Source: Heteronotia binoei (lineage: Eukaryota). From it: DNA of 64,000 nt. The stretch spans positions 32,302,001-32,366,000 of the forward strand of contig NC_083230.1 in NCBI RefSeq assembly GCF_032191835.1. Reading direction: 5' to 3'. Shown piece by piece: positions 11,631 through 15,578 of this stretch; the stretch's first letter is position 1, and the number at the start of each line of letters is the position of its first letter. Below the pieces are notes generated by a model. That model searched no databases. It was not told the origin of the DNA and was given only the letters and a program-made list of their open reading frames with translations. A program made the translations under genes and the position numbers.

Positions 11631-12533
11631 AAAGTCCCTTATGTGGAGGTCTAGGGTTAGGGTTAGAGTAGGGACTGCATATATCAGGGGTGTCAAACTC
11701 ATTTGTTACGAGGGCCAGATCTGACATAAATGAGACTTTGGCGGGCCGGGCGATGTCGGGTCGGGCCGTGTGTGTTCCTATTTAAGATTAGGTAGCAGAG
11801 ATATAAACGTTACAAAGGACACAAAAACAAGATTTAAAAAAAAAAAAAATTAAAATAAAACACGATTATTACATTAACACTTGGTTTTAAAAGTGCTTTC
11901 TTTGTATCTCTCCTGTGTGATCCAGGGAACTAGGCAAAGGAAGCTCTGGCTCTTTCCTTCCTTCTCCAGGGGAGGAGGGGGAGGAGCCTTAGCCAATAGA
12001 AGGAAGAGAAGCTTGGCTCAGTAGCTCTGCTGTATGATTGAGAGAGCCTGGCAAAGCAAGCTATTCCTCCCCCCTTCCTCCTCAAGGGAGGAGACTCAGC
12101 CAATGGAGAAAATAGAGGCTTTGCTCTGTAGCTCCTGTGTGACTGAGCAAGCCTTGTAAAGCAAGCTGTTATGCAAAAGGGAGCAAGAGAGAGGGAGAAG
12201 GAAACAGATGGCAGCCAGTTGCTGGGGGGCCTGATAGGAGCTCTCCAGGGGCCTAGTATGGCCCCTGGACTGCATGTTTGACACTCCTGGTATAGATAGG
12301 GCATTTGTTTATTTTCCCTTCACCCTTTTACTGGTTAATGCAGCTTGTTAATTTATATTGCACTGAATAAACCTTTTTGCTGTTGTTCTTCACTCTGCCT
12401 GGTCCTCACGTCTATTATTTGGCCTAAGCTACAGGAGGCCTGAAGGGCTTGGGAGGGAACTCTGGACCTTCTCAAGGGGAACCCTTAACCCAGAGTAGTG
12501 GCAGCAATTGGTAATACCCCCTGAGTCATGATA
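11631..12533 (+). repeat. 5' LTR (first ~250 bp missing, interrupted by a hAT MITE)
   Basis: 12298-12520 aligns with about 15345-15570 (about 12 mismatches in ~190 nt by eye). 11631-11684 matches the 3' LTR segment near 15287-15337. Ends TCATGATA, the inverse of the 3' LTR start TATCATGA. Confidence 0.8.
11685..12289. mobile_element. hAT-type non-autonomous DNA transposon (605 bp) inserted in the 5' LTR
   Basis: TIRs CAGGGGTGTCAAAC / GTTTGACACTCCTG. 8-bp TSD GCATATAT / GTATAGAT. The uninterrupted 3' LTR has a single GTATAGAT at the homologous site. Confidence 0.9.
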
Positions 12534-12554
12534 TGGTGGCTTCAGTGGTGGGGT
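12534..12554 (+). promoter_or_regulatory. Degenerate primer-binding site, tRNA-Leu type
   Basis: TGGTGG[CTT]CAGTGGTGGGGT against the tRNA-Leu(AAG/TAG) 3'-end complement TGGTGGCAGCGGTGGGAT, immediately after the LTR end. Confidence 0.55.
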
Positions 12555-12852
12555 GAACTAGTTTTGGACCATTTGGCCTTGATATAATTTTTTATTTATT
12601 TTATTTTTTGCTGCTGGCTTAAGGAAGGCACATTTTCTGAAGGTTCTGGCAAGACCAAATGAGGTCTGGTAAAGGTGCTGAAAGGGGTTTTTGTTTATTT
12701 TCTAGCTCTTGGGTCAACTGGGTAGTGAGGCTAGTTAGCTAGTGCATGGTCCTCCAATCTGGGAAAGAGAAGCCAGAGGACACGCCTGTCCCTAGAACAA
12801 AGACCCAACCAGGGGCTGTTGGTCTGATGTCTGAGGAGAAAACACCAGAGAG

Positions 12853-13970
12853 ATGGCATCCCTGAGTGAAGAGGCCTTACGTCTTCAACTGCAGATTAAG
12901 CAGGCAGACCTTGAGAAGGCCAGGCTTGAAGTAGAGTTAAAGGAGAAAGAGCTGCAAAAGCAAGAGAATGCAGCCCAGTTAGAGAGAGGGTTGCTAAAAG
13001 AGGAGAGGGAGAATGCAGCTTAAATGGAGCTGGAAAAAATGAAGGTGACACATGAGATGGAACCTGCAAAAATTGGAAAAGGGCCACTTCCTCCTGATTC
13101 TGCTGTGCAGGATATAGATGGAAGTACCCTTTATACAAGGAAGGGGAGGACACTGAGGCATTCCTACAAAACTTTGAGCAAGTTTGCATGGACTACAAGG
13201 TTCCCCCAGATGTGTATACGGAGAAGTTGAGACCCCAGCTAAGTGGAGTTCTAGCTTCAGTGTCTGGGCAGATGGAAGGTGAAGAGAGGTCATACTACAA
13301 GCTGTTTAAACAGAGAGTGCATGAGAGGGTGGGGTTCTCCAAAGAAGGAGCTTGCAAGAGGTTCAAAGAAGTGAAACCTGAGCCCAAGGAATCCTACCCG
13401 AAGTTGATGTATAGGCTGGGGAAGGCCTATGACCTATGGCTTGAAGTAGCCAACGCTAAGACTCTAGATCAGGGGTGGCCAGTGGTAGCTCTCCAGATGT
13501 TTTTTGCCTACAACTCCCATCAGCCCCAGCCAGCATGGCCAATGACTGGGGCTGATGGGAGTTGTAGGCAAAAAATATCTGGAGAGCTACCGTTGGTCAC
13601 CTCTGCTCTAGATGATGTAAAGTCTTTAATGTGCACTGACCGGTTCTTGACTCTTATTCCTGAGCACATTAGATGCGCACTGATTGACAAGAACCCTTCT
13701 ACCATCAAAGAAGCTGGACAGTGGGCAGACCGCCTGGCTGAAATATATGGAGGGTAGAGACCCAGCACCAGTCGTGATTGGCACCCAAAGGAAAGCCCAA
13801 AGCTCTCTCCTGACTACAGGGCTGAGGAGCAGTCTAAAGGGAAGGAAGAACTGTCCCAGCAACAGCCTCCTAGTTTTACAGGTGCTGGTGTGAAGCTGCC
13901 AACAGGAAATCAGAAGGTACTTCGCTGTTATTCCTGCAATGAGTTGGGGCATATCCAGAGTCAGTGTCTG
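12853..13970 (+). pseudogene. Disrupted gag: coiled-coil N-terminus, capsid-like/SCAN-like region, CCHC zinc knuckle
   Basis: MASLSEEALRLQLQIKQADLEKARLEVELKEKE... (stop, frameshift) YPLYKEGEDTEAFLQNFEQVC... then SCAN-like KTLD/DVKSLMCTDRFLTLIPEHIRCALIDKNPSTIKEAGQWAD. Knuckle CYSCNELGHIQSQC at 13926-13967. Confidence 0.85.
13470..13605. mobile_element. Palindromic hAT (Charlie-type) MITE, 136 bp, inside gag
   Basis: Near-perfect self-complementary element CAGGGGTGGCC...GGTCACCTCTG. Exact 8-bp TSD CTCTAGAT at 13462-13469 and 13606-13613. Confidence 0.92.
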
Positions 13971-14069
13971 AAGTCTACTACTACTACTGTGGCATTCCAC
14001 ATGATGCCAATGGGCCCTGAGCCCACTTCTTCTGAACCAGACCCTGAGTGTATTCCTCAGCGTCACCGC

Positions 14070-14340
14070 AGGGAAGTGACTGTGGATGGGTATGGTGTGA
14101 TAGCCTGATGAGACACTGCTTCCCTTTTGACTTCTGTACATCATTATCTTGTGGACCCGAAGTATTTTCTCCCAGGTGAAGGAAGGTGCTGCGCATCAAT
14201 GAAGTTGAAGGAGTTACCCTCCCAGTGACCAGGATACCCATCCAGTATGAGGGTTGGATTGGAACATGGAAAGTTGTTGTGCATGAAAACACACCAGTGG
14301 CTATGTTTATAGGGGAAGATTTAGCTGAACAGGTGCTTCG
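14070..14340 (+). pseudogene. Retropepsin (aspartic protease) remnant
   Basis: RREVTVDGYGVIA**DTA, with the catalytic DTG-like triad GAC ACT GCT at 14112-14120. After a frameshift it continues as [45 protein letters not shown], the protease C-terminal 'IGxD' motif. Confidence 0.75.
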
Positions 14341-14419
14341 ATGGCAGGAAAGAAAGGCAGGCAAGCTGGCCAAAGGAGTGATGGAGACTGAACACTCTCC
14401 CAAAGTGGTCTGCAAGGAC

Positions 14420-14744
14420 AAGAGGAAGAGAAGATCTTCACAGGGACAGGGTTCTAAGGAACCAGAACAGCTGAGGAAAGTGTTTGTTGGTGGCCTGAGT
14501 TTTGAGACCACTGATGACAGTTTAAGGAAACACTTTGAAACCTGGGTCACACTCACTGCCTTTGTGGTAGCGAGAGATCCACAGACAAAACGTTCCCGTG
14601 GGTTTGGGTTTGTGATCTATTCTTGCCAGGAGGAGGCAAATGCTGTACTGGCAGCTGCACCACATAAGGTGGGTGGTCGGGTGGTGGGACTACAGAAAGC
14701 AGTTCCTAGGGGAAGGTTCTGTGAAGCCTGGTGCCCACTTGACA
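14420..14744 (+). pseudogene. HNRNPA3: Captured, intronless hnRNP A3-like RRM1
   Basis: [57 protein letters not shown]...[17 protein letters not shown], then a +1 shift to [28 protein letters not shown] and VKPGAHLT match A3 better than A1, A2/B1 or A0 as I recall them. RNP2 and RNP1 are intact. Confidence 0.85.
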
Positions 14745-15035
14745 AGAGGGAGAAGATGCAGACTACTACTGCAAAGAAATCGTGTATGCAGTTCAGGCCA
14801 TTTCATGGGTTGTGGAAACTGTAGAGGGAGATGGCTATAGGCAACCAAACTCACCAACCCTAAGCTCCTGAGCTAAAGATTGTGTTATTAATTTCTATAT
14901 TGTGTATAATGTGTTTCTATAGTTTGAGCGTTAATGTTTTATGGTTGGGTTTCCAAGGCAACCCCATTTTGGGTAGACCTCATCGATGGGGATCTAGATT
15001 GCCAGACCCCATGATTTGGTCTAGCGGGGTGTGTG

Positions 15036-15578
15036 TATCATGATCCTGGGTCTAGCAAGGCCTCCAGGCCCCAGGAAAGCCTGCTTAGGAGTTACTGGGA
15101 AGAGCCTACATTTCCCAGGATCCATCCTGTCCCTCTGATTGGGTGGCCAGGTTTTGGAGGGAAACTGGCTCAGAGAGGGGTGGGGCCTGGGAAGAGAAGA
15201 TAAAAGGGCCAAGCCCAGAAGGGGGTGTTCTTTCCCTGGAAGGCTGAGCTGGAGGCAGGCTGTAGCCTGGAGAGCTTGAAGCAGGGGAAAGGCCCTTACC
15301 CAAGAGGGTAAGGGTATTAGAGTAGGAACTGTATAGATAGATCCGTTAGGACATTTGTTTATTTTCTTTTCCCCCTTTTACTGGTTAATGCACCTTGATA
15401 ATTTATATTGCACTGAATAAACCTTTTTGTTATTGTTGTTCACTCTGCCTGATCCTCACGCCTATTATTTGGCCTAAGCTACAGGAGGCCTGAAGGGCTT
15501 GGGAGGAAACTCTGGGCCTTCTCAAGGGGAATCCTTAACACAGAGTGGTGGCAGCAATTGGTAATACCCCCGGTGACA
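15036..15578 (+). repeat. 3' LTR (543 bp)
   Basis: Starts TATCATGA after a G-rich PPT-like run and ends GGTGACA. TATA-like GATAAAA near 15199, AATAAA near 15416. Homologous to the 5' LTR. Confidence 0.85.

Follow-up and report, generated by a model that had tools for sequence, protein, structure and literature searches.

Positions 11631-15578 of the window (the whole 64,000-nucleotide stretch of Heteronotia binoei DNA analysed here) are a dead copy of a many-copy family of Gmr1-like LTR retrotransposons in which spliced hnRNP A3 mRNA replaces integrase and reverse transcriptase (RT). Patterns of sequence change suggest that the first RNA-recognition motif of this captured piece, RRM1, was kept intact by selection during the family's spread, with a constraint about as strong as that on the Gag capsid.

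Architecture of the window copy

A sequence-only reading of this DNA had proposed an LTR element whose pol was replaced by a captured RRM, and much of what it saw is borne out (Table 1). LTRs stand at both ends, sharing 232 nt at 92% identity, the primer-binding site starts at 12534, gag has weak but recognizable SCAN and zf-CCHC matches (each E 1e-4), and the RRM is complete (RRM_1, E 7e-13) with RNP2 and RNP1 intact. The copy is also as dead as had been supposed: gag has stops at 13021 and 13755 and is frameshifted near 13120, two stops at 14106-14111 precede the protease triad, a further frameshift lies near 14180, and both ends have decayed, with the 5' flank missing. Other details need amending. 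The family protease is whole, and what had looked like a C-terminal half-domain reflects breaks in the window copy only; the stop-free frame exists, from 14180 to 14824, but in this copy its final 35 residues come after a shift of frame near 14712.

Table 1. Features of the window copy and its truncated edge
Feature	Position	Strand	Remarks
SINE at truncated 5' LTR edge	11368-11630		
5' LTR, first ~240 nt gone at the SINE, split by an insertion	11631..12533	+	
Insertion with terminal inverted repeats inside 5' LTR, 605 nt	11685..12289	.	8-bp duplication, 6/8 alike; presumably hAT-type, from end motif
Primer-binding site	12534..12553	+	other copies match host tRNA-Leu(AAG) 3' end
Candidate acceptor-like pyrimidine tract + AG, leader	12690..12705	+	present in 11/11 other leaders examined
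gag: coiled-coil N-terminus, SCAN-type capsid, CCHC knuckle (13923-13967)	12853..14066	+	
Inverted-repeat insertion splitting gag, 136 nt	13470..13605	.	exact 8-bp duplication; other copies without insertion
Aspartyl-protease domain, triad D-T-A at 14112-14120	14067..14338	+	
Spacer: hnRNP A3 exon 1 trace, exon 2 (5' UTR + N-terminus), exon 3 start	14352..14467	+	
hnRNP A3 RRM1; RNP2 14480-14497, RNP1 14597-14620	14468..14710	+	60/80 residues identical to host protein
A3 inter-RRM linker, RRM2 deletion joint near 14741, exon 6 end, exon 7 start	14711..14830	+	
pol RNase H C-terminal remnant	14832..14871	+	
G-rich polypurine-tract position	15023..15035	+	degenerate in window copy
3' LTR: TATA-like 15199, donor-like GGTAAG near 15306 then TAG-rich cluster, AATAAA 15416	15036..15578	+	

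The captured piece and its donor

The captured mRNA comprises exons 1-7 of the host hnRNP A3, spliced, and sits between the full protease and the final codons of RNase H, ending within host exon 7 where it joins the RNase H sequence. The host gene (G000:C16, ~35.705-35.717 Mb) matches the element exon by exon, the element RRM being traceable to this one gene at about 80-90% DNA identity, and it has GT-AG introns at every joint that are absent from the element, in keeping with the earlier proposal of capture from mRNA. When the element RRM was placed in a tree with hnRNP A0, A1, A2B1 and A3, all 61 element rows formed one branch (98/94) beside host A3 and apart from the other three, the A3 grouping being supported at 100/98; the donor is hnRNP A3. 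The sequence-only reading had named the right gene and too short an extent, as the piece runs from a trace of exon 1 and exon 2 through to exon 7, with RRM2 deleted.

Both RRMs are present in the earliest-branching copies, and RRM2 is lost in most later ones, the window copy included; in 28 of 33 copies with this loss the host frame is regained through an identical net 237 nt. The spacer between protease and RRM1 also varies. Five lengths are found in two or more copies (63, 102, 108, 117 and 141 nt) and all five are in frame, for which the probability by chance is about 0.004, while lengths seen once are in frame in 8 of 22 cases.

An L1-type processed pseudogene that landed in an already dead LTR element, which the earlier reading had itself raised, would explain why the piece is intronless, but we regard this as next to impossible. 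The piece corresponds to the 5' half of the mRNA, bears neither poly(A) nor a duplication of its own and abuts the RNase H sequence directly, and it takes the place of pol instead of interrupting it; the junction is moreover common to 88 of the 89 element loci, which refutes such an origin and also rules out a single-copy accident.

Copies and spread of the family

The family has at least 88 loci spread over many contigs (88 of 89 element loci match host A3 cDNA), and a search with the LTR gave 2997 first-look candidates. The LTRs are of the TG..CA type and are accompanied by a tRNA primer site and a short target duplication. These 5-bp duplications are exact in 11 of 19 solo LTRs and, judged by eye, in 6 of 8 two-LTR copies; the insertions are independent and record repeated rounds of retrotransposition. 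There are at least two LTR types, each with its own subfamilies, and the element tree is ladder-like. No open Gag-protease-RRM frame is preserved, there being no intact copy among the 89 loci and no family frame longer than 406 aa. One copy, L118, reaches 29.1 bits for SCAN (cut-off 27) and the other scanned copies fall under the cut-off, while the zf-CCHC match lies above its own.

The catalytic triad of aspartyl proteases is D-T/S-G; in this family it is D-T-A in 58 of 69 readable copies, with G in 5. Over 88 aa the family protease shares 45% identity with turtle Gmr1-like proteins, and turtle SCAN-PR(-RT-RH) proteins are its top relatives in the databases. Among 100 protein-database matches there was neither a fused protein nor a close member of the family; among 110 matches no protease relative exceeded 45% identity, and a weak search for longer proteins returned no family member. 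Two RRM-bearing matches were rejected as relatives, being RRM and knuckle proteins without SCAN or protease. The predicted structure of a natural protease-RRM frame has a pLDDT of 40 and is not relied on.

Could the copies have been shed by one or a few loci retained as a host Gag-RRM gene, with selection acting on the host function? A ladder-like tree is what a long-lived source would produce, and Gag genes bearing RRM-like domains do persist as host genes, according to the part of PMC11011659 used here. We nonetheless judge a domesticated source very unlikely, in view of the two or more LTR types with separate subfamilies, the large number of LTR candidates, the lack of an intact frame at any of the 89 loci and the absence of a close predicted protein among the database matches.

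What is left of pol

Integrase and RT are absent from the family, whose pol is reduced to the protease and an RNase H tail; it is a non-autonomous derivative and not an autonomous member of the Gmr1-like group. The earlier statement that the element lacks RT, RNase H and integrase is therefore correct for the first and last and wrong for RNase H, of which 14 codons persist at 14832-14871, with a score reached by 0 of 2000 shuffles; of the 23 copies in which the motif was found, 15 have this tail out of frame. Its position after the A3 piece fits descent from a PR-IN-RT-RH order.

A close pol-bearing parent was not found among 18 close protease matches, 17 of which run into A3 while one breaks off in the spacer, in a search that left out about 25 further close protease matches and all unscored candidates. 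Integrase and RT matches near family copies belong to nested or neighbouring elements on the opposite strand, except in L100, which has a 22%-identical integrase piece past a stop. Three pol-bearing Gmr1-like elements (L119, L167 and L168) were rejected as parents, their proteases being only about 30-37% alike and L119 having no match to the family LTR. Also rejected were L157 and L169, A3-less remnants of RNase H and the 3' end with nothing upstream; parent sequence past the putative switch points is visible only in these two decayed remnants.

Signs of selection on RRM1

The earlier reading had suspected past selection on the RRM, and RRM1 does show fewer nonsynonymous (N) relative to synonymous (S) changes between subfamilies (19:21) than the within-subfamily baseline (661:329; odds ratio 0.45, p 0.016), in a test based on about 40 changes and on groups defined from a tree built on that region itself. 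The signal holds across thresholds of 0.5-0.8 (odds ratios 0.28-0.49, p 0.0015-0.019) and is accompanied by one for the gag capsid (0.41, p 8e-6); all these p values are nominal, several regions having been tested. The controls are null, with odds ratios of 0.99 and 1.42 for shifted frames and 0.97 for the gag spacer. Constraint on the protease is not significant (0.61, p 0.11), and RRM2 has none (18:6 between against 324:143 within, odds ratio 1.3), pooling of the two RRMs giving a non-significant p of 0.10. A host-versus-element comparison (11:15, p 0.019) includes changes on the host branch and is not relied on. No subfamily has a majority stop at any of 80 RRM1 or 90 protease columns, and RRM1 is retained through every shared deletion, including that of the different-LTR subfamily. 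Together, the frame-specific deficit and the in-frame spacers indicate that a fused Gag-protease-RRM frame was likely translated, and under selection, during the active life of the family.

Neutral hitch-hiking, in which A3 RNA was captured once as filler and the frame and N:S patterns arose by chance or mutation bias, finds some encouragement in the modest RRM1 p values and in the frequency with which LTR elements capture mRNA (PMC5131818, in the part drawn on here). Set against it are the five in-frame spacer lengths and a deficit confined to one frame, and we hold it to be more improbable still than a domesticated source. A folded passenger is less easily dismissed. On this view the need for Gag kept the fusion translated, and RRM1, though binding nothing useful, was constrained only since a misfolded tail would harm Gag; the unconstrained and eventually lost RRM2, the early alteration of several specificity residues and the stepwise in-frame trimming that shortens the tail all agree with this. 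A stop after the protease would, though, have removed a useless tail at once, and no subfamily adopted one, while RRM1 outlived each shared deletion; on balance we think a passenger unlikely.

RNA contacts and a proposed mechanism

In hnRNP A1, RNA contacts include F17, F59, D42 and R92, and loss of R55 weakens binding 50-fold (PMC5503513). The equivalents of the first four are retained in most copies of all five groups, whereas nearly every copy departs from the host at the equivalents of E85, P86 and M46, and those of K87/R88 are variable; at the position of R55, whose codon has a CpG, the host-like residue survives in only 25 of 68 copies. Over the whole LTR, TAG motifs are not enriched (z -0.4 to -1.7), and the local TAG cluster beats all shuffles in only 4 of 13 LTRs. 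The donor-like GGTAAG of the LTR and the acceptor-like AG of the leader are candidate signals, offered as a lead only.

The explanation that we favour, and consider probable, begins with a Gmr1-like element, of which the window holds a dead copy, that exchanged its integrase and RT for A3 mRNA, likely through two template switches. The capture would have created a single Gag-protease-RRM frame, likely translated, whose RRM1 likely bound the element's own RNA, while a helper element would have supplied RT and integrase. RRM1 would on this model have been an extra RNA-grip on Gag, favouring the element's own RNA for packaging, and may have been left attached by the D-T-A protease. Use of the RRM in packaging, trafficking or splicing, with RT and integrase acting in trans, had been suggested by the earlier reading. 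What RRM1 bound is the weakest part of the explanation, its putative contacts being partly kept and partly changed. An RRM derived from hnRNP A3 would be expected to bind single-stranded RNA that contains AG, and one candidate target is an AG-rich cluster in the LTR, next to the donor-like site. More tentatively, and at somewhat less than an even chance, a metaviral lineage may have shed its enzymes, taken a host splicing and RNA-transport domain as an RNA-recognition module for Gag, retuned its specificity residues and dropped RRM2 over successive subfamilies.

Significance and comparison with known systems

Host mRNAs captured by LTR elements are usually viewed as passengers, or as material from which host genes can be built. 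Constraint while the element was mobile points instead to a domain gained for the element's benefit, a transfer from host to transposon that runs opposite to domestication. One genome preserves the donor and the joints together with intermediates that carry both RRMs or only one and have spacers of five lengths, so the succession of steps, and binding at each of them, are open to test, and the family offers a traceable model for RRM-like domains on other metaviral Gag proteins. If RRM1 was indeed a new Gag module, this would be a datable record of Gag proteins gaining RRM domains, and of a parasite of other retrotransposons that uses a domain stolen from its host to win packaging or to control how its own RNA is spliced.

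That LTR elements can capture genes is established. In the literature we located neither an earlier description of such an element nor a metaviral Gag fused in frame to a host RRM under selection. The family resembles Gmr1-like LTR retrotransposons (Metaviridae) in its SCAN-type capsid, CCHC knuckle, protease, RNase H tail ending pol, TG..CA LTRs and 5-bp duplication, and departs from them in lacking integrase and RT, in having host RRMs after the protease and in its prevailing D-T-A triad. In LTR-mediated retrocopies (Tan et al. 2016, PMC5131818), as set out in the sections used, spliced host mRNA likewise replaces part of the internal ORF, both LTRs are kept and further rounds of copying occur; those are described as young, whereas here there are about 90 loci in several subfamilies, an in-frame fusion and a selection signal on a mobile lineage. 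The crocodilian ERVs with KIT-ligand or nectin3 (PMC4299795) are, from the portion of that account used, also reptile LTR elements with host mRNA in several copies under purifying selection, but are retrovirus-class, number 9 and 6 copies and carry the captured gene as an ORF of its own, next to env or replacing it, while the present capture replaces pol, is fused to Gag-protease and encodes an RNA-binding domain. Maize Bs1 is an LTR element with transduced host segments in a translated chimeric ORF; it is a plant element with three enzyme or transporter fragments, and the passages used from the review (PMC13317346) name no RNA-binding domain. A parallel in fold is the metaviral Gag ancestral to PNMA, with an RRM-like domain of putative function in reptiles, amphibians and fish (PMC11011659); that domain is N-terminal, with no host donor named in the part of the paper cited, while the RRM described here lies C-terminal to the protease and comes from one donor gene.

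The window copy

The LTR element carrying a piece of hnRNP A3 is a real feature and, as the sequence-only reading had it, runs from LTR and primer site through gag, protease (PR) and an RRM to a second LTR. L119 (see below), a complete Gmr1-like polyprotein encoded in the same genome, aligns with the element's gag and protease and, used as a query, found no integrase (IN) or reverse transcriptase (RT) in it. In a domain profile search the gag frame gave a weak SCAN match and a clear CCHC match; the RRM frame has hnRNP A1 and A2/B1 as its closest solved structures. The LTRs have 232 nt in common at 92% identity, the 5′ LTR lacking its first ~240 nt, where it adjoins a SINE, and containing a 605-nt insertion. 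The copy is dead, its gag broken by the stops and frameshifts first reported and also by one insertion. The two stops described ahead of the protease triad are present but are not a family trait, neither occurring in 47 of 66 fully read copies and both in two.

Features located in the window
Feature	Position	Strand	Remarks
LTR element	11631-15578
Primer site	starts 12534		directly after 5′ LTR
Acceptor-like site	12690-12705		leader, upstream of gag start
RRM frame	14180-14824		RRM_1, E 7e-13
Donor-like GGTAAG, then TAG-rich motifs	15306-15345		LTR; GGTAAG in 8/13 full LTRs
Open frame	8675-9376	-	looks like a LINE RT C-terminus
Open frame	63288-63998	+	looks like a Gypsy integrase N-terminus

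A dispersed and decayed family

The protease-RRM junction recurs in many copies: with the best 40 of 127 candidates scored, the stretch gave 42 match rows (75-92% identity) on many contigs, and host A3 is matched by 88 of 89 element loci, counted after dropping same-place repeats and two near-identical C6 duplicates. Four near-identical copies at G000:C6:136.29-136.60 Mb (L097-L099), a local duplication, were entered once. The LTR query returned 2997 first-look candidates, the best 40 of which were scored; none of 20 fetched LTR-only hits had internal sequence beside it. An exact 5-bp duplication was found at 11 of 19 LTR-only hits with readable ends (two more had one mismatch) and, by eye, at six of eight two-LTR copies. 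The primer site matches host tRNA-Leu(AAG) (12 pattern hits; two of four fetched were called tRNA-Leu). LTR pairs diverge by 2-9%, median 6% (19 copies, none from the oldest group; one row was dropped, as its hits were not LTR pairs). At L074:2650-10000 a younger LTR element, with RT upstream of integrase and LTRs 98.7% identical, is nested in RRM1 on the opposite strand.

The open Gag-PR-RRM frame that had been envisaged was not found whole, since none of the 89 loci is intact and the longest frame has 406 aa. Natural frames nonetheless bridge every joint from gag capsid to RRM1: that of L004 (305 aa) opens in the capsid, continues over knuckle and protease and reaches into RRM1, and that of L021 (297 aa) extends from the end of the knuckle across the whole of RRM1. 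The family protease is whole, with 45% identity to turtle proteins; their triad is D-T-G, that of the family D-T-A in 58 of 69 copies across all groups. If D-T-A does not cut, the RRM would stay on Gag. One turtle protein annotated as TBC (P0104) opens with a Gmr1-like Gag and protease, and may be a further fusion or a product of chimeric annotation.

The best-scoring candidates of genome searches included no close element with pol. L119 (G000:C15:30537001-30546900) belongs to a separate young Gmr1-like family, with a 1465-aa SCAN-CCHC-PR-IN-RT-RH frame and a 300-nt repeat pair 98% identical; open frames above 1000 aa hold 14 of 150 scored rows.

Capture from hnRNP A3 mRNA

The proposed origin in hnRNP A3, by capture from mRNA, is borne out. 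Four host paralogues (A3, A1, A2B1, A0) were located, and the element, intronless, matches the A3 gene on contig C16 exon by exon, with AG/GT ends on all six host exons used. The window copy crosses all but one of the five exon joints, the exception falling inside its deletion; L089 crosses all five and has 39 nt of exon 1 (85% identity). In a tree of 300 columns, its bootstrap not settled and 18 partial copies excluded, the 61 element rows all group in a single branch (98/94) adjoining host A3, apart from A1, A2B1 and A0 (100/98). L089 (G000:C5:81.17 Mb), the copy closest to the host, has both RRMs, exon 7, a longer RNase H (RH) tail and many later insertions, and alone among the loci examined a longer piece of exon 1. 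Both exon 1 (G000:C16:35704900) and exon 2 (35708116) of host A3 contain an ATG; the element carries the longer exon-1 reading together with 5′ sequence of exon 2, and so records a single splice form.

The tree branches like a ladder, long-tipped two-RRM copies coming first and one-RRM copies after. Some two-RRM copies are scattered among young copies, which suggests recombination. RRM2 is kept in 23 of 55 copies with both anchors and missing from 32, 30 of these by the same 235-nt loss. The 3′ end of the A3 piece abuts RH C-terminal sequence (14 codons in the window, more in L089, the last 25 in one subfamily). As Gmr1-like elements are ordered PR-IN-RT-RH according to bioRxiv 10.1101/2025.03.03.638093, and likewise in L119, the captured A3 has taken the place of IN, RT and most of RH. 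Two A3-less remnants, with RH tail and 3′ end (L157:7752-8640, L169:7847-8182), show the source of that tail and likely stem from the parent or helper lineage. A subfamily with a different LTR (local 72-85% matches only; L095, L096, L100, L107, L110, L112, L116, L159-L166, L170), in which RRM1 continues into the last 25 RH codons, is possibly a recombinant with another lineage.

Constraint on capsid and RRM1

Among 57 copies free of large insertions, 43 have A3 in frame with the protease; every spacer length seen at least twice (5/5, in 35 copies) is divisible by three, compared with 8 of the 22 lengths seen once. N:S was counted column-wise between yardsticks of five groups cut from the tree and from each copy to its own yardstick, host excluded, an odds ratio (OR) below 1 meaning fewer amino-acid changes between subfamilies. 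RRM1 gave 19:21 between and 661:329 within (OR 0.45, p 0.016; 0.28-0.49 across thresholds), the deficit being absent in both shifted frames, which supports the suspected past selection, on few changes, groups derived from the same region and several tests with uncorrected p-values. Gag capsid gave 42:68 against 830:546 (OR 0.41, p 8e-6), protease 0.61 (p 0.11), knuckle 0.59 (p 0.38), gag spacer 0.97, RRM2 1.3 and the A3 linkers, where changes were few, 0.73 and 1.57; RRM1 and RRM2 pooled gave p 0.10. In none of the groups are stops in the majority at any column of RRM1, protease or capsid. Spliced A3 mRNA was captured, amplified and trimmed in frame, with capsid and RRM1 constrained.

A proposed role for RRM1

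That a non-autonomous element was constrained at the amino-acid level implies a protein that would have favoured the element's own RNA; RT and integrase were presumably provided in trans. RRM1 may have given Gag an extra RNA grip; the main rival is that it was a folded passenger. The host residue is commonest in all groups at 60 of 80 RRM1 columns. The claim that RNA-contacting aromatics survive stands for F17, F57 and F59 (hnRNP A1 numbering), and Q12, K15, D42, R92 and H101 are also retained; it does not extend to all contacts, E85, P86 and M46 being lost and R55 kept in 25 of 68 copies. Q12, K15, F57, H101 and M46 are presumed RNA contacts. According to PMC5503513, F17/F59 of hnRNP A1 read the AG core, D42/R92 the next base and E85/K87 the preceding base; the prediction is therefore that the element's RRM1 kept its grip on AG-G, with an altered upstream preference. 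A candidate target is the LTR donor-like site with its TAG-rich cluster, together with the leader acceptor-like site. TAG enrichment was not found over the whole LTR, and 4 of 13 LTRs have a significant cluster. Splicing between these putative sites would excise the primer site.

Comparison with known systems

A search of mainly open-access papers found no description of the A3 family or a similar element. Related cases are known: metaviral Gag can carry RRM-like domains (PMC11011659), maize Bs1 captured host segments (PMC13317346), and LTR-element capture of host mRNA is established (PMC5131818), the double template switch described there having, by analogy, the same anatomy as the A3 piece. 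Crocodilian ERVs (PMC4299795), like the A3 family, hold host captures that are multi-copy and under selection.
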